DNA from: Mobula hypostoma
Taxonomy: Eukaryota
Direction of reading: 5' to 3'
Assembly: GCF_963921235.1 (NCBI RefSeq)
Contig: NC_086108.1
Location: 25,730,001-25,794,000, forward strand
Length of the DNA: 64,000 bases
In this document: positions 2,863 to 51,722 of the stretch, piece after piece
Numbering within the stretch: the stretch's first letter is position 1
Layout of the letters: the number at the start of each line of letters is the position of its first letter
Notes under the pieces: model-generated
Told to the model about the DNA's origin: nothing
Databases searched by the model: none
What the model saw: only the letters and a program-made list of their open reading frames with translations
Program-made: the position numbers and the translations under genes

Positions 2863-4774
2863 ATAAAAGGATGCCCTTCTATTCTGAGGCAGTGTCCTCT
2901 GATCTTAGACTCTCCCACCATAGGTAGCATCCTCTCCTCATCCACTCCATCAAGGCCTTTCACCATTCAAGAGGTTTCAATGAAGTCACTACTCATTCTT
3001 CTGAATTCTAGTGAATACAGGCCCAGAACCATCAAATACAAGCCATTCAATCCTGGAATCATTCTCATGTATCTCCTTTGAACTCTGTCCAGTATCAGCA
3101 TATCCTTTCTAAATAAGGGGCCCAAAACTGCTTCTCAATATTCCAAAACTGCCTCACCAGTGCATTATAAAGTTTTAGCATTACATCCTTGCTTTTATAT
3201 TCTAGTTCTCTTGAAATGAATGCCAACATTGCATTTACTTTCCTCACCACAGACTCAACCTGCAAATTAACCTTCAGGGAATCTTGCACAAGGACTAACA
3301 AACCCCTTTGCTCCTCAGTTTTTTGTATTTTCTCTCCATTTAGGAAATAATCAGCTCTTTCATTTCTTCTACCAAAATGCATGACCATACACTTTCCAAC
3401 ACTGTATTCCATCTGCCACTTCTTTGTCCATTCTTCTAATCTGTCTAAGTCTTTCTGTAGCCTCTCTACTTCTGCAAAACTCCCTGCCCCTCTACCTATC
3501 TTCATCTCATCTGCAAACTTTACAACAAAGCCATCAATTCCATCATCCAAATTATTGACATGTAACGTAAAGAGAATCAGTCCCAACACAGACTCCTGTG
3601 GAACACCACTAGTTACTGGCAGCCAGCCAGAAAAGGCTTCCTTTATTTCCACTCTTTGCTTCCTGCCAATCAGCCACTGTTCTAATGCTAGAATTTTTCT
3701 TTTAATGTCATGGGCTCGTAGTTTGTTAGGCAGCCTTACGTGTGGCACCTTGTCAAAGGTGTTCTGAAAATCCAAGCACACAAATTCAACCAAATCTCCT
3801 TTGTCAAACCTGTTTGTTACTTCTTCAAAGAATTCCAACAGATTTTTCAGGCAAGATTATCTTGAGGAAACCATGCTGACTATGGCCTATTTTATCATGT
3901 GCCTTGAAATACCCTGAGACCTCATCCTTAATAATCAACTCCAACATCTTCCCAATCACTGAGGTCAGACTAACTGGCCTATAGTTTGCTTTCTTGGAAG
4001 CACAAAGCTAATGGTTGGAGGATACACAGTTTATGTACCTAGTTATGCATAAAGCTTACCTGACAAGATTAATTTCTGTCAAGGAGACGTAGTGCGATGT
4101 GATGAGATATACTCCTATGGTTTGCTGGAGACTTTTGCCAAGTTACTAACTTCACTCTTACATATTTTCATCCGTAATTGTCTCTCAATTTGTGAACTGA
4201 TTGACAGGTGTAATAAGTGTCATGTATTGTAGATTTTAGACCTAGAGACTTGTAGCAGCTCAGCTGGTTATTTGCCCTGGGAAAGCAAGCCAATATCTCC
4301 AGATAGCGTAAAAAATGACTCCCTGATGTGGAGGCCATCGGTTTATGTATTTGATATTACAATTTGTGAAGGAGAATGGTCATGGCATGCAAATGTAATA
4401 AAGCATTACCATCTCAATAAATATTTCCTTGCACAATCTCTGAAGTTGTTTCTGCTCATTTATGTGATGTATAACTGTGGAATCCACTATTAAAAACAAA
4501 TCTTGAACTCAGGGAGATTAAGGAGTGCAGAACTTTTCCCATGAAGGTGCTATAACAAATAAGCATGAGGTACAAGAGGTGAATAAATCTCGTAAGGCTG
4601 AATCACAAAGTGAGCAATAGTGGAGTGAAGATGGTGAGGATGCATGGGAAGTCAAAATGGGTAGACAACTCCTGTAGCACATTACATACAGACATAACGA
4701 GGGGACTTCAAAGTCAATGCCAAGGTTGTTGTTACGTGCAGGGTCAATGAAAACATTAGCTTCCAGCAGCAGCA

Positions 4775-26404: not shown

Positions 26405-26540
26405 AAAGAACATCTGCGCTTACTATGCAATCCCATATCCAGGCATCCTGCCAAGATTGATTAATTGATTGATTCAACCAACACACATCAAAGTTGCTGG
26501 TGAACGCAGCAGGCCAAGCAGCATCTATAGGAAGAGGCGC

Positions 26541-26576
26541 AGTCGACGTTTCAGGCCGAGACCCTTCGTCAGGACT
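26541..26576 (-). ncRNA. Minimal type I hammerhead ribozyme, intact core
   Basis: Exact reverse complement of the 26306-26341 motif. Confidence 0.85.
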
Positions 26577-26874
26577 AACTGAAGGAAGAGTGAGTAAGGG
26601 ATTTGAAAGCTGGAGGGGGAGGGGGAGATGCAAAATGATAGGAGAAGACAGGAGGGGGAGGGATAGAGCCGAGAGCTGGACAGGTGATAGGCGAAAGGGG
26701 ATACGAGAGGATCATGGGACAGGAGGTCCGGGAAGAAAGACAAGGGGGGGGGGTGACCCAGAGGATGGGCAAGAGGTATATTCAGAGGGACAGTGGGAGA
26801 AAAAGGAGAGTGAGAGAAAGAATGTGTGCATAAAAATGAGTAACAGATGGGGTACGAGGGGGAGGTGGGGCATG

Positions 26875-27896
26875 AGCGGAAGTTAGAGAAGTCGATGTTC
26901 ATGCCATCAGGTTGGAGGCTACCCAGACGGAATATAAGGTGTTGTTCCTCCAACCTGAGTGTGGCTTCATCTTTACAGTAGAGGAGGCCGTGGATAGACA
27001 TGTCAGAATGGGAATGGGATGTGGAATTAAAATGTGTGGCCACTGGGAGATCCTGCTTTCTCTGGCGGACAGAGCGTAGATGTTCAGCAAAGCGGTCTCC
27101 CAGTCTGCGTCGGGTCTCACCAATATATAAAAGGCCACATCGGGAGCACCGGACGCAGTATATCACCCCAGTCGACTCACAGGTGAAGTGATGCCTCACC
27201 TGGAAGGACTGTTTGGGGCCCTGAATGGTGGTAAGGGAGGAAGTGTAAGGGCATGTGTAGCACTTGTTCCGCTTACACAGATAAGTGCCAGGAGGGAGAT
27301 CAGTGGGGAGGGATGGGGGGGACGAATGGACAAGGGAGTTGTGTAGGGAGCGATCCCTGCGGAATGCAGAGAGGGGGGGAGGGAAAGATGTGCTTAGTGG
27401 TGGGATCCCGTTGGAGGTGGCAGAAGTTACGGAGAATAATATGTTGGACCCGGAGGCTGATGGGGTGGTAGGTGAGGACCAGGGGAACCCTATTCCTAGT
27501 GGGGTGGCGGGAGGATGGAGTGAGAGCAGATGTACGTGAAATGGGGGAAATACGTTTAAGAGCAGAGTTGATAGTGGAGGAAGGGAAGCCCCTTTCTTTA
27601 AAAAATGAAGACATCTCCCTCGTCCTAGAATGAAAAGCCTCATCCTGAGAGCAGATGCGGCGGAGACGGAGGAATTGTGAGAAGGGGATGGTGTTTTTGC
27701 AAGAGACAGGGTGAGAAGAGGAATAGTCCAGATAGCTGTGAGAGTCAGTAGGCTTATAGTAGACATCAGTGGATAAGCTGTCTCCAGAGACAGAGACAGA
27801 AAGATCTAGAAAGAGGAGGGAGGTGTCGGAAATGGACCAGGTAAACTTGAGGGCAGGGTGAAAGTTGGAGGCAAAGTTAATAAAGTCAACGAGTTC
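26875..27896 (-). pseudogene. PLE RT-thumb plus GIY-YIG endonuclease ORF, frameshifted near 27370
   Basis: ORF 27300-27614 (MSSFFKERGFP...) continues in the frame of ORF 26525-27766; native stop TAA is TCA here (compare CGCTAATGCC at 14480). Confidence 0.88.
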
Positions 27897-28170
27897 TGAT
27901 TGATTGATTGATTTAGAGATACATCGCAGAACAGGCCCTATGAGCTAAAGTGCCCAGCAAACCATCTATTTACCCCAAGCCTAAACACAGGACAATTTAC
28001 AATGACCAATTAATCTACTAATCAGTACACCTCTGGAATGTGGAAGGAAACTAGAGCACTCAGAGGAAACACACATTCTCATGGGAAGGATGTACAAACT
28101 TCTTCCAGATAGCATCAGAGATCAGAGATCAACTCTGAATTCCGGCAGCCTGAGCTATAATAGTGTCGTC
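27897..28170 (-). mobile_element. HE1-like V-SINE
   Basis: GGACAATTTACAATGACCAATTAA...TGTGG.AGGAAAC.AGAGCAC core shared with the other copies in the window. Confidence 0.8.
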
Positions 28171-28414: not shown

Positions 28415-30519
28415 AAAGAATCTAGCCAAAGTTGATTGGAAGGGGACACTAGCGGGGATGATGGCAGAACACCAATAGCTAAAGCTTCTGGGATCAATTT
28501 GGATGGCCCAGGATAGACACATCCCAAAAATGAAAAAGTATTCTAAAGGGAGGCTGAAGCAACTGTGGCTGACAAGGGAAGCCAAAGAAAGCATAAAAGC
28601 AAAAGAGAGGGTAAATAATATAGCAAAAATTAGCAAGAAGTTAGAGGATCGGAAAGCTTTTAAAAATCAACAGAAGGCAACTATAAAAACCATAAGGAGA
28701 GAAAAGATGAAATACGAAGTTAAGCCAGTCAATAATATCAACGTGGATACAATTTTTTTCAGATATATAAAGAGTAAGGGATAGGCAAGAGTGGATATTT
28801 ATACTGTTAGAAAATGACACTGGAGAAGTAGTACTAGGGAACAAGGAAATGGCAGACAAACTAATTAAGTGCTTTGTATCAGTCTTCACTGTGGAGGACA
28901 TTAGCAATATCCCAGAAATTCCAAAGTGAGTTTAGTTGCTATTGATAAGGAGAAGCTGCTTGGGAAGCTGAAAGGTCTGAAGGTAGATTAGTTACCTGGA
29001 CTGGATGGACTACACCCTAGGGTTCTAAAGAGGTAGCAGAAGAGATTGTGGAGGCATTAGTAATGATCTTTCGTGAATCACTAGATTCTGGAATGTTTCT
29101 AGAGGACTGGAAAATTGCCAATATCACTCCACTCTTCAGAAAGAAAGGGAAGCTGAAGAAAAGAAATTATTGGCCAGTTAGCTTGACTTCAGTGGTTGAG
29201 AAGATGATCGAGTCCATTATTAAGGATGAGGTTTTGGGATACTTGATAAAGTTGGCCAAATTTAGCACATTTCCTTAATGGGAAGTTTTGCTGACAAATT
29301 TGTTGGAATTCTTTGGGGAAATAACAGGCAGCACAGACAAAAAAAGAGTTGGTAGATGTTGTTTATTTGGAGTTTAGGAAAGCCTTTGACAAAGTGCTGC
29401 ACATGAGACTGCTTAACAAGATAAGAGCCAATGATATTACAGGAAAGATACTAACATGGATAGAAGATTGGCTGACTGGCAGGTGGCAAAGAGCAGGAAG
29501 AAAGAGAGCCTTTTCCGGTTGGCTGTTGGTGGCTAGTGGTGTTCCATAAGGGTCAGTGTTGGAACTGCTTCTCTTCACGCTATATGTTAATAATTTGGAT
29601 GATGGAATTGATGGTTTTGTGGCTAAGTTTGCTGATGGTACAAAGATAGATGGAGAGGCACATAGAGTTGAGGAAGCAGGGAGTCTGCAGGAGGACTTAC
29701 ACAAATTGGGAAAATAGGCAATTAAGTGGCAGATAGAATATAGTGTAGGGAAGTGTGTGGTCATGCAGTTTGGTAGAAGGAATGAAGCCATAGGCTATTT
29801 TCTAAATGGGGAGAAAATTCAAAATTCAGAAATGCAAAGGGACTTAGGAGTCTTTCTCAGGATTCCTTAAGGCTTTAGTTGCTGGTTAAGTCGATGGTAA
29901 GGAAGGCAAATACAAACGTACAATGTAAGTATTCATTTCAAGAGGACTAGAATGTAAAAGCAAAAATTTGATGCTAAGGCTTTATAAGGCATTGATCAGA
30001 CTATACTTGGAGTATTGTGAGCAATTTTAGACCCCTTATCTAAGAAGAGATGTGCTTGCATTGCAGAGGGTCCAGTGGAGGTTCACGAGAATGTTTCTAG
30101 GAGAGAAAGGGTTAACATATGAAGAACACTTAATAGCTCCGTGCCGGTACTCACTGAGTGTAGAAGAATGAGGGGAGAATCTCATTGAAACCTTTTGAAT
30201 ATTGAAAGGCTATGACAGAATGGGTGTGGAAAGAATGGGTACTATAGTGGATGAACGCGGGACCAGAGAGCATTTAAAACAGAGGTGAGAAAGAATTTCT
30301 TTAGCCAGAGGGTGATAGATCTGTGGAATTCATTGAGGAGGCCAAGTCATTGAATATATTTAAAACAGTGGTTGATAGGTTTTTAGTAAGTCAGAGCGTC
30401 AAAGGTTACAAGGTTAAGGCAGGAGAATGGGTTGAGAAGGATAATAAATCACCCATGATGGAATAGCGGGGAAGACTGGGCTGAGTGGCCTAATTCTGCT
30501 CCTATGTCTTATGGTCTTA
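28415..30519 (+). mobile_element. Degenerate CR1 LINE (pre-RT, RT and 3' UTR)
   Basis: ORFs 29048-29278 (EDWKIANITPLF...VSLTSV) and 29349-29549 (AFDKV...SGVP); tail TCTTATGGTCTT. Confidence 0.93.
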
Positions 30520-32990: not shown

Positions 32991-33279
32991 TAAAATTCAA
33001 TAGTCTGAGGGAGTAGTCTAACACTGATATTTTTGTCAAATAATTTGGTAATTTAGATAGTTATGAACAAATCAGTTCCTTCCAAGAGAAGGATAGCTTA
33101 AAATCTTTTGTTTAGAATTAGCCATGACTGAGGAATGAGCAGAGGTCGTTTGAATTCTAAGTCGAAGCATAAGTAGAGGCACATGTAGGTATATGCGCTG
33201 TGAAAAATTTGCTGCATCAGCCTCAAAGGCACATAACAGCACCTACGTGATATTCACAAGCAAAATAAAAACTAACAAC
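32991..33279 (+). repeat. ~290-bp local direct duplication, copy 1 (donor)
   Basis: Collinear match to 36008-36295. Confidence 0.9.
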
Positions 33280-33306
33280 ATAAATATTACATTCCTTCAA
33301 TCATAG

Positions 33307-35782
33307 TGTCATGGTCCAGTCCGTGAAGTCTACATTCCAGTTTGCGGTCCGGTCCATCGTTTCTTATTCCAGTTTTCCCAGTTTTCCCTTGTTCTTTTGG
33401 GTGCTCTAATTGAGGCACCTGATTCTCGTTTGGGCTGGAATTCATAAATAGCTCCTGGATTCAGCTTCAGTTGCTGGACTGTTCCCTCCCCTTCCCCTTC
33501 CTTCTGAAACCTCGCCTGCTACCTTCGCTTGTGTCCTCGCCTGTAACGCTTTCAGGTTCAACTGCCAGGGCAAGATCAGGGCCTTGCTGTGTCTAGATTA
33601 GGAACTGTCTTTCGTTGTTTGGAACTGTCTCTTTGTGTCCTTGCCTTCGCTAGGTAGGTCCAGCTGTTTGCAGCTACCTTGAGTTGGGAACCACCTCTGT
33701 GTCCATGCCTTTGCTAGGCAGATCTTGCTGTTTGCCGCTATCTTTTGTTGGGAACCGTCTCTTTGTGCCCTCGCCTCCGCTGAGTAAGTCTGGCTGTTTG
33801 CCGCTACCTTGAGTGGAGATCTGTCTCTCAGTGTTCTGTGTATGCGTCCCGGCCCTACGTCCTGCTCCCTAGGAGAGGTCCTAAATCTGTGTAGAATCCC
33901 GGCCCCAAGTCCCGTTCCCAAGGAGGGGTCCTGGCTCTGTGTTCAATGTTCCTGTCCTCCCTCGATCAAGCTCTGTGTTCCTGTCCTCCCTCGACCAAGT
34001 CAAGCCTTCGTGTTCCCGTTCTGTCCATGTCCCTCGCCCAGCCCAGGAGTACCTCGCCCAGCCCGGTGCTGGGGTTCCCTCATACTCTGCGGGAGTTCCA
34101 CATCCAGTCATGTAGCCATGTCTTGTCCTTGCCTAGATCTGGAGTCCGAGCCCAAGTCAAGACCCAGGTTTCGGGTCCCTGTCCAGTCTCTGGCTTGGAG
34201 TCCTCGTCCGGGTTCCAAGTTCCTAGATCCACATCCAGGTTTCACGTTCCTAGTCTAGTCCTAGCCCAGGCCCTGTATCCTAGCCTCATCCAGGGCCTGT
34301 GTCTTGTCCAGTATTGTTTCTTCCCCACTTACCTTGCTTGCTTGACACAGCTAGTCCTGTTCCAAGTACTTCAGTGTCTGTGTCCTGCATTTGAGTCTGC
34401 TCCTAGTGCCCCCAGTATGATAGAATAGTCCAGTCAAGCATAGACCCAACGACACAGACACTGTCATTGTACTCTCGCTATCTTGGTTTCCCTCCTGTTG
34501 AATGCACCCCCCTCCCACCCGCCCGTGTCGTCCATTGTCTGAGATTGCCTGTTTGGTTGCCAGGAGACTCCCATAGTGGGTGTGGTACTGTAATGGTCCG
34601 GTCCGTGAAGACGGAATTCCAGTTCACGGTCCAGTCTATCATTCCTTATTCCAGGTTTTCCGGTTTTCCCTTGTTCTGTTGGGTACTCTAATTGAGGCAC
34701 CTGATTCTCATTTGGGGTGGCTTCATAAATAGCTCCTGGGTTCAGCTTCAGTTGCTGGACTGTTCCCTCCCCTTCCCCTTCCTTCTGAAGCCTTGCCTGG
34801 TACTTTCGCCTGAAGCCTTGCCTGCTACCTTCACCTGAAGCCTCGTCTGTAACACTGTCAGGTTCAACCGCCAGGGCAAGATTGGGGCCTTGCAGTATCT
34901 AGATAAGGAACTGTCTTTTGTTGCTTGGAACTGTCTCTTCGCGTCCTCACCTTTGCTAGGTAGGTCTGGCCGTTTGCCGCTACCCTGAGTTGGAAATTGT
35001 CTCTGTGTCCATGCCTTCGCTAGGTAGGTCTGGCCGTTTGCTGCTACCTTGAGTTGGAAATTGTCTCTGTGTCCATGCCTTCGCTAGGTAGGTCTGGCTG
35101 TTTGCCGTTATCTTGTGTTGGGAACCATCTCTTTGTGCCCTTGCCTCCGCTGTGTAGATCCAGCCGTTTGCTGCTACCTTGAGTGGAGATCTGTCTCTCA
35201 GTGTTCTGTGTATGAGTCCCGGCCCTATGTCCTGCTCTCTAGGAGGGGTCCTGACTCTGTGTAGAGCTCCGGCCCCAAGTCCTGTTCCCAAGGAGGGGCC
35301 CAGCTCTGTGTTCCATGTTCCTGTTCTCCCTTGACCAAGTCAAGGCTTCATGTTTTCATCCTGTCCATGTGCCTCGCCCAGCCCAGGAGTACCTCACCCA
35401 GCCTGGTGCTGGGGTTCCCTCGTCCTGTACTGGGATTCACTCATACTCTGCAGGAGTTCCACGTCCAGTCCTGTAGCATGTCTTGTCCTCGCCTAGATCT
35501 GGAGTCCGAGCCCAAGTCAAGACTCAGGTTCTGGGTCCCTGTCCAGTCTCTGGATCAGAGTCCTTGTCCAGGTTCCAAGTTTCTAGTTTCTCGTCCAGGT
35601 CTCGCTTTCCTAGTCTAGTCCTAGCCCAGGCCCGGTATCCTAACCTCGTCCATGGCCTGTGTCTTGTCCAGCATCGTTTCTTCCCCACTTCCCTTGCTTG
35701 CTTGACACAGCTAGTCCTGTTCCTAGTACTTCAGTGTCTGTGTCCTGCATTTGGGTCCACTCCCAGCGCCCCCAGTATGACA
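33307..35782 (+). mobile_element. Non-autonomous Gypsy (Tf1/sushi-like) LTR element: LTR 33307-34422, interior 34423-34588, LTR 34589-35782
   Basis: TGT...ACA ends; 5-bp TSD CATAG at 33302-33306 and 35783-35787; PPT-like GTGGGTGTGGTAC; PPARVV integrase remnant. Confidence 0.9.
33443..33484 (+). promoter_or_regulatory. LTR TATA-like box and predicted self-primer
   Basis: CATAAATA at 33443-33450; CTGGACTGTTC at 33474-33484 is complementary to 34423-34433; same motifs at 34724 and 34755. Confidence 0.65.
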
Positions 35783-36007
35783 CATAGGCAAAGGTTGTTG
35801 CTGCTTATTGTCACATGTAGCGAGTTACAGCGATACTTCCCATCCCATCCAGGAAGATCATGTTGAATATAGAGGATGGTGATTCAATGGCATTCATTGC
35901 TACAGTCTGCTGGGGAGGCCAAATCCATAAGTCCAACAGACATAAGAGCAGAATTAGGCCAATTGGCCCATCAAATCTGTTCCTCCATTCCATCATGGGT
36001 GATGGAG

Positions 36008-36295
36008 TAAAATTCAATATCTAAGGGAGTAGTCTAACACTGATATTTTTGTTAAATAATTTGGTAATTTAGGTAGTTGTGAACAAATCAGTTCCTTCCA
36101 AGAGAAGGATAGCTTAAAATCTCTTGGTTGGAATTGGCCAGGACAGAGGAATGAGCAGAGGTAATTTGAATTCCAAGTCGAAGCCTAAGCTGAGGCACAT
36201 GTATGCATATGTGCTGTGAAAAATTTGCTGTATCAGCCTCACAGGCACATTACATCACCTACATGATATTCACAAGCGAAATAAAAACTAACAAC
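36008..36295 (+). repeat. ~290-bp local direct duplication, copy 2, inside a CR1 3' UTR
   Basis: Matches 32991-33279; CR1 sequence resumes at CAACCCCATTCTCC. Confidence 0.9.
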
Positions 36296-36777
36296 CCCAT
36301 TCTCCTTCTCTGTGTAACCTTTAATGTCTTGACTAATCCAAGACATATCAACCTCCGCTTTAAATATATTCAATGACTTGGTCTCCACAGTCATCCATGA
36401 TAATGAATTCCACAGATTCACCATCGTTGTTCTAAATGGATGTCACTCTATTCTGAGGTTGTGCCCTCTGGTATTAGTCTTATCCACTATAGGAAATGTC
36501 CTGTCCACATTCATTCTATCCAGGCCTTTCAATATTGAATAAGTTTCAATCAGATACCCCACAACCTCATTCTTCTAAACTCCGGTGAGTACTGATGCAG
36601 AGTCATCAAACACTCCTCATACTTGAACCCTATCATTCTCATGAATCTCTTCTGGACCCTCTCCAATGCCTGCACATTTTTCTTAGATATATGGGGTCCA
36701 AAACTGCTCACAATACTCCAATTATGGCCTGAGAGATGCCTTATAAAACCTCAAAATTACATCCTTGCTCGCATATT

Positions 36778-40987: not shown

Positions 40988-42412
40988 TGCAACACCAGTA
41001 GTGAGGACCAAAAAAGTATGGACAAGGGAAGCACAGAGGCACCGAGAGTACTGCTTTAGACTGTATTCGGGGATTCATCTTCGAACCTGGATGAGTATGC
41101 CACAGTTGCTACTGACTTCATTAAAACCTGTGTGGATGAGTGTGTGCCTACAAAGACTTACTGTACATTCCCAAACCAAAAGCTGTGGATGAACCGGGAA
41201 GTACATCATCTGCTGAAGGCTAGATCTGTGGCATTCAAGTCTGGCAACCCAGGCCTGTACCAGAAAACCAGGTATGATTTGCAGAGGGCTATTTCAAGGG
41301 TGAAGGGACAAATTCAAATGAGGTTAGAGGTGACATCAGATGCACGGCAACCCTGGCAGGATCTGGCAGACATTCCTTCCTACAATGTGAATCCTGATAG
41401 CATGAATGGCAGTGATGCTTCAACACCAGATGAACTCAATGCCCTCTATGCCCACTTTGAAAGGAAGAACACCACCACAGCGGTGAAGATCCCTGCTGCA
41501 CCTGATGACCCTGTTATCTCCATCTCAGAGGCCGATGTTAGGCTGTTTTTAAAGAGAGTGAGCCCTCGCAAGGCAGAAGGTCCAGATGGGTTACTTAGTA
41601 AAGCTCTGAAAACCTGTGCCAACCAACTAGTGGGAGTATTCAAGGACATTTTCAACCTCTCACTGCTACAGGCAGAAGTTCCCACTTGCTTCAAAAAGGC
41701 AATAATTATACCAGTGCCTAAGAAGAATAATGTGATCTGCCTTAATGACTATCGCCTGGTAGCACTCACATCTACAGTGATGAAATGCTTTCAGAGGTTG
41801 GTCATGATGAGACTGAACTCCTGTCTTAGCAAGGACCCATTGCAATTTGCCTATCACCGCAATAGGTCAATGGCAAATGCAATCTCAATGGCTCTCCACA
41901 CGGCTTTAGACCACCTGGACAACACAAACACCTACGTCAGGATGCTGTTCATCGACTCTGTGGCATTTAATGCCATCATTCCCACAATCCTTATTGAAAA
42001 GTTACAGAACCTGGGGCTTCTGTACCTCCCTCTGCAATTGGATCGTCGATTTCCTAACAGGAAGACCACACTGTGCACACTGGTGATAACATATCCTCCT
42101 CACTAATGATCAACACTGGTGCACCTCAGGGCTTAGCCCACTGCCCTATTCTCTATATACATTTGACTGTGTGGCTAGGCATAGCTCAAATACCGTTATA
42201 AATTTGCTGACAATACAATCATTGCTGGTAGAATCTCAGGTGGTGACGAGAGGGCGTACAGGAGTGAGATATGCCAACTAGTGGAGTGGTACTGCAGCAA
42301 CAACTTGGCACAACGTCAGTAAGACGAAAGAGCTGATTGTGGACTTCAGGAAGGGTAAAACGAAGGAACACACCCCAATCCGAATAGAGGGATCAGAGGT
42401 GGAGAGAGTGAG
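40988..42412 (+). mobile_element. Internal fragment of a Rex1/Babar LINE (RT), both ends missing
   Basis: ORF 41132-42106: KAEGPDG, IIPVPKK, LNDYRLVALTSTVMKCF, DPLQFAY, RMLFID; downstream GAPQG and KFAD motifs. Confidence 0.93.
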
Positions 42413-50117: not shown

Positions 50118-51722
50118 CAGTGCCTATAAAAAGAATTCACCCCACCTTGGAAGTTATCATGTTTTGTTGTTTTACAACATTGAATCACTGTGGATTTAAT
50201 TTGGCTTTTTTTTGGACACTGATCAACAGAAAAAGACTCATGTCAAAGTAAAAGCAGATCTCTACAAAGTGATCGAAATTAAGTACAAATATAAAACACA
50301 AAATAATTGATTGCATAAGTACTCACCCCCTTCAAGTCTGTATTTAGTAGATACACCTTTGGCTGCAATTACAGCCTATATCTATATCTATCTGTCTGTA
50401 TCTGTATCTATCTATATCTGTCTGTATCTATCAGCTTTGCACATCTGGACACTGTAAATTTTCCCCATTCTTCTTTACAAAACTAGTCAAGCTCTGTCAG
50501 ATTACATGGGGAGCATGAGTGAACAGCACTTCTCAAGTTCAGCCACAAATCTTTAATTGGATTGAGGTCTGGACTCTGACTTATCCACTCCACGACATTA
50601 ACTTTGTTGTTTTCAAGACATTTCTGTGTAGCTTTGGCTTTATGCTTGGGGTCACTGTCTTGCTGGAAAACAAATCTACTCCCAAGTTGAAGTTCTCTTG
50701 CAGGCTCCATCAGGATTTCCCTGTATTTTGCTGCATTCACTTTACCCTCTACTTTCACAAGCCTTCCAGGGCCTGATGTGGTGATGAATCCCCACAGCAT
50801 GATGCAGTCATCATCATACTTCACGGTAGGGATGGTGTGTTTTTGATGATGTGCAGTGTTTGGCTTACGCCAAACATACCATTTAGTCTGATGGCCAAAA
50901 AGCTCAATTTTGGTTTCATCAGGCCATAGAACCTTCTTCCAGCTGACTTTAGAGTCTCCCACATGCCTTCTGGTATGCATTAGCTGAGATTTCATGTGAG
51001 TTTTTTTCAACAGTGGCTTTCTTTTTGTTGAAGCACCCAGGCAACTATTGTTGTATGCGCATTCTCTCCCATCTCAGCCACTGAAACTTGTAACTCGTCC
51101 AAAGTTGTCAAAGGTCTCTGTTAGTGGCCTGTCTCACTACTCCCCTTCTTGTACAGTCACTCAGGTTTTCAGGATGGCCTGTTCTAGACAGATTTACAGC
51201 TCTGCCATATTCTTTCCATTTCTTGATGATTGATTTAAGGAATATTCAGTGACTTGGAAATTCTCTTGTATCCATCTCCTGACTTGTGCTTTTCAATAAC
51301 CTTTTCATGGAGTTGCTTGGAATGTTCTTTTGTCCTCATTTTGTAGTTTTTGCCAAGATACTGACTCATCCCCAGTTGGACCTTCCAGACACAGTTGTAT
51401 TTTTATTACAATTAATTGAAAAACCTTGTCTGCACACAGGTCTCCAAAACAGATCTCTATTTAACTAATTATGTGACTTCTAAAGCCAATTTTTGCAGTG
51501 TCATATTAAAGGGGTGAATACTTCTACAATCATTTATTTTGTGTTTTATATTTGTAATTAACTTTGATCACTTTACAGAGATCTGCTTTCAACTTGACAC
51601 AAAAGAGTCTTTTTCTGTTGATCAGTGTCCGAAAAACCCAAATTAAATCCACTGTGATTCAATGTTATAAAACAATCAAACATGAAAACTTCTAAGGGGG
51701 TGAATACTTTTTATAGGCACTA
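50118..51722 (-). mobile_element. Tc1 (DD34E-type) transposon with ~210-bp IR/DR terminal repeats
   Basis: TIR CAGTGCCTATAAAAAG...; inner and outer AAGTA.TCACCCC repeats; TA flanks. Confidence 0.93.
50483..51010 (-). pseudogene. Tc1 transposase catalytic domain remnant
   Basis: WPDETKIELFG, FQQDSDPKH, SPDLNPIKDLW (catalytic E replaced by K). Confidence 0.9.

Follow-up and report, generated by a model that had tools for sequence, protein, structure and literature searches.

How does an LTR retrotransposon start its reverse transcription when it carries no genes and no tRNA-type primer-binding site (PBS) follows its LTR? The question is raised by a short element, here called the mini-element, in the genome of Mobula hypostoma (3.48 Gb, used as the search space); the stretch analysed around it, the window, is 64,000 nt long. 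We observed a non-coding family with target-site duplications (TSDs), complementarity between its PBS and its own LTR, covariation between the two, a 30-31 nt spacing to a TATA-like box, the potential to form a stem around the PBS, and fold-back junctions. All this is very probably explained as a whole by a family that primes reverse transcription with its own RNA end and borrows its enzymes from coding Gypsy relatives.

When the coordinates and repeats were recomputed, they agreed with an earlier note on this DNA, which had described two LTRs of 1116 and 1194 bp around 166 bp, flanked by the TSD CATAG (Table 1). The element totals 2476 bp, and its LTRs are 88.7% identical across 1084 aligned columns (K2P 0.124). 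The ATA that ends the 5' LTR is a decayed ACA, and only the first ~166 nt of this LTR are predicted to be U3, the remainder being R-U5. The interior of this copy contains no long open frame. Its polypurine-like tract, also reported earlier, was found; it is decayed here and forms a clear purine run in most other copies.

Table 1 Features of the mini-element, in window coordinates.
Feature	Position	Strand	Remarks
Left TSD CATAG	33302..33306	+	Direct observation
5' LTR, 1116 bp	33307..34422	+	3' terminus ATA; R-U5 with internal repeats
TATA-like box CATAAATA	33443..33450	+	Starts 30 nt 5' of G33473, the first primer base
Predicted self-primer GCTGGACTGTTC	33473..33484	+	Predicted first 12 nt of the RNA; putative start site
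U5 arm of PBS-flanking stem	34372..34398	+	Outer 13 nt 34372-34384, inner 7 nt 34392-34398
Primer-binding site GAATAGTCCAGT	34423..34434	+	Abuts the LTR end; without TGG
Leader arm of stem	34442..34463	+	Inner 34442-34448, outer 34451-34463; from the gag start of coding relatives
Pol 3'-end remnant	34509..34574	+	Pre-chromodomain linker (PPARVV, 34515-34532) fused to post-chromodomain tail
Decayed polypurine tract and TAC spacer	34575..34588	+	
Interior, 166 bp	34423-34588		Between the two LTRs
3' LTR, 1194 bp	34589..35782	+	TATA-like box at 34724, primer copy 34754-34765
Right TSD CATAG	35783..35787	+	Direct observation

The element is surrounded by a 276-nt direct repeat (91%; window 33004-33279 and 36020-36295) and by a broken inverted repeat (30003-30519 and 35928-36725), and no empty-site paralogue of the insertion was found within the window. 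Elsewhere in the window lie decayed frames (1850-2761, 3095-3856, 26525-27944, 41060-42106 and 50483-51073) which we take to resemble LINE reverse transcriptase, Penelope-type and Tc1-type transposon proteins.

A 251-nt query spanning the LTR end, the interior and the LTR start returned 766 genome candidates, and all 40 matches that were scored span most or all of the LTR-interior-LTR junction; the layout of two LTRs around a short interior was present in all 30 loci returned by this query. An exact 17-nt LTR-end/PBS pattern gave 100 matches (the reversed control pattern gave 0), namely 91 with the short interior (few truncated), 7 fold-backs, one palindrome (L074), one chance match and no coding element. 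With a variant-PBS pattern, 234 further matches were obtained; the 91 distinct junctions among the 100 matches listed consisted of 76 with the interior and a 3' LTR, 3 with the interior only, 2 fold-backs and 10 others (7 in one unrelated tandem array, 1 with a deleted interior and 2 chance-like), the short interior thus being present, with or without a 3' LTR, in 79 of the 91 examined.

The interior measures 133-206 bp across the family (139-206 bp in 85 of 88 distinct copies), and the 47 two-LTR copies are 1553-3587 bp long with LTRs of about 0.7-1.3 kb. TSDs match at 5/5 positions in 18 of these 47 and at 4/5 or more in 26, with 26 different sequences; among the two-LTR copies lacking a TSD are tandem units and others whose boundaries were misplaced. 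The LTRs of a copy differ by a median K2P of 0.111 (range 0.029-0.216, 47 copies), so the copies seen, which were sampled by similarity or by the exact PBS pattern and are not an unbiased sample, are old. An AATAAA-type signal was present in R-U5 (window 33485-34422 and 46 other copies) in only 1 of 47 copies.

The interior junction is therefore not unique to the window, and the sister copies with different TSDs that the earlier note had suggested looking for do exist. That the element is a full-length Gypsy copy which suffered a single deletion after insertion would suit an interior built from gag-start and pol-end remnants, but it is refuted by the recurrence of the short interior in 91/100 and 79/91 junctions with 26 different TSDs, and we give it practically no credence. 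The element is one old copy of a multi-copy, propagated non-coding LTR retrotransposon family. Tandem arrays of the form LTR-interior-LTR-interior-LTR were seen at L016, L025, L027, L065, L097 and L252. A tandem array of a different unit with a similar LTR-end/PBS junction (GAACGATCCAGC) lies at L254-L260 (G000:C1, ~193.60-193.64 Mb); it has a gag-like start and long simple-repeat stretches, with no U3 or polypurine tract resembling those of the mini-element family, and is possibly a satellite from a related element.

The self-complementarity first noticed in the window was reproduced: the 11 nt following the 5' LTR (GAATAGTCCAG, 34423-34433) pair with CTGGACTGTTC (33474-33484) through 10 Watson-Crick pairs and one G-U, and the duplex grows to 12 nt when G33473 is included. 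No 11-nt complement to the PBS occurred in 400 dinucleotide-shuffled LTRs. The G-U pair is private decay of the window copy, since T occupies PBS position 4 in only 2 of 88 copies, while the family PBS GAACAGTCCAG(C/T) is present in 74/88; at least 11 of the 12 primer/PBS positions pair in 92 of 101 LTRs. The proposed placement of a TATA-like box about 30 nt upstream of the primer also held: in the 87 LTRs where a box was called, the first primer G comes 30 nt (76 LTRs) or 31 nt (11 LTRs) after the start of the box, and a T-G step occupies the predicted start in 88/101 LTRs. About 30 nt from the TATA box is the spacing expected of a Pol II start, and on this indirect basis we infer that transcription would start at the primer G (G33473).

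Priming by a tRNA 3' end requires TGG at the LTR junction. Here TGG is absent, in agreement with the earlier note, and GAA comes directly after the LTR; the PBS therefore has no pairing with a tRNA CCA end. An Rfam search of the genome gave 60 tRNA matches, 30 of them as loci, with usable sequences for tRNA-Lys(TTT) only; against nine sequences of this single sampled isotype, the longest match of the PBS was 6 nt. A dense cluster of tRNA-family matches lies at G000:C90, ~4.02-4.33 Mb.

If the PBS pairs with the LTR of its own RNA, the two should change in concert, and the anticipated covariation is present both across subfamilies and across coding relatives. In the variant set, PBS position 6 is A with a primer T in 102/105 LTRs, and in the subfamily of the window most LTRs have G there, opposite a primer C; at position 7 of the variant set the pair is T-A in 87/105 and A-T in 16/105. 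Position 5 is G-T, not G-C, in 41/105 LTRs, for which CpG decay would account, and position 1 is unpaired in 7/15 rows of the permutation set. Coding families have other PBSs (e.g., GAACGATCTGGC, GAACGAACTGGC and GTACAGTCTGGC), surveyed in the 20 of 40 loci where the LTR/PBS junction was located, and in most of these families the best PBS duplex within 1.3 kb upstream begins at a G ~30 nt past a TATA-like box. The non-coding clade has at least four PBS types and the coding families three or more, each matching its own LTR segment, always at the same distance from the TATA-like box. For 13 coding and 2 non-coding copies, a primer and its own PBS pair on average at 10.7/12 positions vs 9.4/12 after swapping, and 0/20,000 permutations were as high, a value that overstates independence because of the sampling by similarity or PBS pattern, shared descent and the calling of primers by a GC[CT]AG motif, by which 8/21 coding rows were dropped. 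Since both lie on one RNA, primer and PBS can diverge jointly, uncoupled from host tRNA and from the PBS of the helper that would supply the enzymes.

These counts bear on a different primer, a host RNA such as an internal tRNA fragment or a small RNA, in which case the LTR/PBS complementarity would serve folding, dimerisation or regulation. Non-canonical tRNA-fragment primers exist, according to passages on a half-tRNA in Copia (PMC6317226) and on anticodon-loop PBSs in fungal Helenus (PMC10886601), and our comparison covered just the nine tRNA-Lys(TTT) sequences. One helix is also missing from the three-duplex "pretzel" described for Tf1 in part of PMC10085805: a duplex 5' of the PBS, the third of these helices, was detected at p ≤ 0.05 in 1/47 copies (last 20 nt of the LTR against R-U5). 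Yet a host primer would need to change with each of the at least four non-coding and at least three coding PBS types, and its best match among the sampled tRNA-Lys(TTT) is the 6 nt given above, which makes it improbable.

Self-priming by the LTR segment is further supported by the sequence on the 3' side of the PBS, as U5 and the leader pair around it. Across 88 copies, 1010/1116 cells (90.5%) and 562/608 cells (92.4%) of this stem are paired, the folding z has a median of -3.7 (25 copies), and the stem appears in both the MFE and the centroid structure of the predicted 1008-nt RNA. The primer/PBS helix was not predicted in the ViennaRNA fold of this RNA; together with the U5/leader stem it makes a pseudoknot and is therefore beyond what ViennaRNA can represent. 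When 9 non-coding and 21 coding copies were combined, 90% of 418 stem cells paired (30-39% in slid controls). Both sides change in 7 of 14 pairs (14/500 shuffles as high) and in 12 cells (a number reached in 0/500 shuffles), the structure having been drawn from the same sequences that were tested. The coding-copy stem is bulged, and just 3/21 coding copies passed the ungapped test. The "decayed gag start" of the earlier note does derive from the gag start of coding relatives, but it is better read as a retained arm of an RNA stem: its ATG is kept in only 52/88 copies, and the folding models suggest that this stretch is likely kept as RNA structure.

Judged by alignment, the family shares homology in its termini, leader and interior with coding Gypsy elements of chromovirus type in the same genome, in which DUF4939 (PF16297) has 2121 candidates. 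These coding relatives carry Retrotrans_gag/DUF4939, RVT_1, RNase H, rve and SH3_Tf2-1 domains, with Chromo in 2 of the 12 frames scanned (one weak), and the solved structure nearest to the reverse transcriptase (RT) of one of them is that of Ty3. They align with the mini-element over U5, PBS and leader. The first ~40 nt of the interior match their gag start and positions 87-152 the end of pol, where the PPARV linker is joined to the tail and no chromodomain lies between them; the PPARVV motif recorded earlier as an integrase remnant is present, and is more precisely the linker before the chromodomain.

An autonomous partner with the same LTR, which the earlier note presumed, did not turn up: none of the 100 exact junctions is coding, nor any of the 91 variant junctions among the matches listed of the 234. 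The 30 DUF4939 loci have only the LTR ends, leader and pol tail in common with the family, and the same holds for 20 longer stretches of coding sequence (10 of them extend such loci). The enzymes are likely borrowed from coding Gypsy elements of the same genome, and the helper may be one of the coding families found, or extinct. Just 5' of its 3' LTR, L126 (G000:C21:136402400-136412300) is a coding-type copy without a chromodomain between the same linker and tail; it is the best match to the pol remnant of the mini-element (71% over 66 nt), and its LTR and PBS differ. In L123 (5064-5735), an integrase-region frame continues into a match to ALKBH8_N, which is probably a LINE piece inserted there.

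We propose that the RNA would begin at G33473 and that its first 12 nt would anneal to the PBS ~950 nt downstream, which the U5/leader stem would hold in a loop. By analogy with Tf1, the RT/RNase H of the helper would cut past about nt 12 and extend the freed primer into U5, and the helper integrase would then insert the cDNA with a 5-bp TSD.

A class of aberrant copies bears on these steps. At 12 independent loci, the LTR end and the 12-nt PBS are followed by the reverse complement of U3. Of these fold-backs, five contain an internal inversion and extend from a U5 end to a U3 start (L063, L093, L095, L100, L321), another five begin and end with U3 (L116, L145, L167, L175, L251), one is complex, with an inverted interior and a reciprocal junction (L067, or L067/L141), and for one a single end was found (L177). 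They are spread over different PBS subfamilies. TSDs match at 4/5 positions or more in 8 of the 11 loci with both ends found (~2% by chance), including the U3-U3 elements L145 (5/5), L175 and L251 (4/5 each); the U3-U3 elements L116 and L167 are without TSD. No fold-back locus showed an inverted duplication of the flank. The arms are 81-96% identical and thus not read artefacts, and an arm is closest to its own partner in most fold-backs, L116 and the U5 arm of L167 being exceptions. The L093 fold-back sits in sequence resembling, by eye, the chromodomain end of a coding Gypsy copy.

Several candidates were not counted: L144 duplicates L100; L069, which lacks an upstream LTR, L276 and L333 were read as chance matches; and L153, L165 and L166 are normal LTRs. 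L074 was also set aside, as its palindromic LTR halves are followed by the PBS, about 6 interior bases and then unrelated flank, an arrangement that fits PBS-ended DNA inserted without normal end processing. In L110, L178, L179 and L186, the LTRs are otherwise normal but are missing ~35 nt, TATA included, between two GCTGG repeats; a query carrying that deletion had retrieved three of these loci.

The fold-back loci are likely by-products of reverse transcription. If, as is probable, the primer is copied into DNA, the 3' end of that DNA consists of LTR end and PBS; it can pair with the primer site of the strand to which it belongs and would sometimes fold back and copy U3, and integrase would insert the resulting inverted-repeat products. 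Half of the junctions (6/12) lie at the primer site and the other half at a 5-6 nt U3 mimic 35 nt upstream. This mimic agrees with no more than the final bases of the PBS, which is what one would expect if a free 3' end stopped at nt 12-13; the corresponding deletion is also present in the four normal LTRs named above. The fold-backs show physical pairing of PBS and primer site, but since cDNA primed by a tRNA would terminate in a PBS copy too, they alone do not prove which RNA primed.

Even where self-priming holds, the fold-backs could have arisen after insertion, either because the 12-bp inverted repeats formed by primer and PBS underwent inversion or template switching and a deletion followed, or because a cDNA end annealed into a resident LTR in a Rad52-type reaction. 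L067/L141 has both an inverted interior and a reciprocal junction, the forms with a U3 start and a U5 end would retain the original TSD, and a 6-nt inverted motif common to the LTR start and end could guide a precise deletion. L116, moreover, has no TSD and U3 arms that are not mutual closest matches, and part of PMC11042837 describes PBS-directed, integrase-independent insertion as demonstrated for Tf1. Against this, reciprocal junctions are scarce, with 1 (in L067) vs 7 exact forward matches, an excess that argues against genomic inversion because inversion should give equal numbers. L145, L175 and L251, with U3 at both ends, a TSD and no inverted flank, would need two precise events each; the inverted U5 arms outscore all but 0-3 of the 88 normal copies in 6 of the 7 elements whose second arm is complete, a result that speaks against another copy having invaded; and the mimic, used in half of the junctions, matches only the end of the 12-nt PBS. 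A post-insertion origin thus seems rather unlikely, though it has concrete points in its favour.

If the fold-backs are by-products of self-priming, the genome preserves a fossil record of self-primed reverse transcription, in which a gene-less clade keeps only the priming RNA structure, its primer and PBS change jointly without constraint from tRNA or helper, and in ~5% of the sampled junctions the copied primer snapped back and was integrated with U3 at one or both ends. We lean towards this broader picture, with only modest confidence. LTR retrotransposons could in this way give rise to inverted-repeat elements with TG..CA ends, which would be misfiled as DNA transposons, and the same fold-back cDNAs would be predicted for Tf1. 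Set against earlier self-priming work, the family is an increment on known biology and brings no new mechanism; it contributes compensatory changes within one clade, predicts the start site to the base, and has integrated fold-back copies that resemble physical traces of primer copying. The 166-bp interior also reveals the cis-elements that a self-priming parasite keeps, namely the PBS, one stem arm and the polypurine tract.

The precedent for self-priming is Tf1, as described in parts of PMC7175516, PMC10085805 and PMC11042837. For vertebrate sushi elements it was proposed by Butler et al. 2001, as cited in passages of PMC6317226, PMC4600332 and PMC10085805, and, as far as the relevant passages of these three and of PMC7175516 go, it is demonstrated only in fission yeast, the vertebrate sushi-type case being a predicted pairing. 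Like Tf1 and the sushi elements, the mini-element lacks a PBS for a tRNA 3' end; its PBS complements a stretch of its own LTR where the RNA is predicted to begin, the leader on the 3' side of the PBS can form a duplex with the LTR, its termini are TG..CA, and its coding relatives have a Tf2-type SH3 and a chromodomain. Unlike them, it is non-coding and so falls outside the coding gag-pol clade, these domains sitting in its coding relatives. Its duplex has 12 nt, vs 11 nt in Tf1, and one of the two flanking duplexes of Tf1 was found in it, its mechanism being deduced from sequence. Primer and PBS lie ~950-1000 nt apart, vs 220-440 nt in most coding relatives of the same genome. The self-priming arrangement of the Tf1/sushi type put forward in the earlier note is nevertheless supported by the complementarity of the PBS to its own LTR, by the covariation and by the 3' flanking duplex.

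The label "TRIM/LARD-like parasite family" fared less evenly: a multi-copy non-coding family was found, but it fails the size of a TRIM and has no interior of LARD length. LARDs combine long LTRs and no coding capacity with an interior kilobases long; the mini-element shares the first two, and its interior is ~166 bp, not kilobases. With the TRIMs Cassandra, Helenus, Ajax and biv-TRIM, as portrayed in parts of PMC10886601 and PMC6934838, it has in common a short non-coding interior, bearing a PBS and a polypurine tract, between two LTRs, many dispersed copies with TSDs, and tandem arrays sharing LTRs. The definition given in the same two sources is a length below 1000 bp with terminal repeats of 100-250 bp; the mini-element, unlike a TRIM, is 1.6-3.6 kb long, with LTRs of about 0.7-1.3 kb and no tRNA-type TGG PBS. 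The passages covered describe no self-priming TRIM, the bivalve paper mentioning self-priming only for autonomous fungal elements. In the limited literature covered, no self-priming non-autonomous vertebrate family and no fold-back or palindromic LTR products are described, and nothing on vertebrate or chondrichthyan mini-elements describes this one; the family may already be catalogued in Repbase or Dfam.

The closest parallel to the fold-backs is the PBS-overhang cDNA of Tf1 (Li et al. 2022, PMC11042837). According to the portion of that study bearing on it, the PBS stays single-stranded at the 3' end of about half of the Tf1 cDNA; as proposed here, the DNA end consists of LTR end and PBS and anneals by PBS homology. 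In the same account, the Tf1 end acts without integrase, annealing to PBS-like sites in the genome or giving rise to direct tandems. Unlike the Tf1 case, the end of the mini-element joins the complementary primer site, which yields an inverted U3, and most of its products carry a 5-bp TSD.
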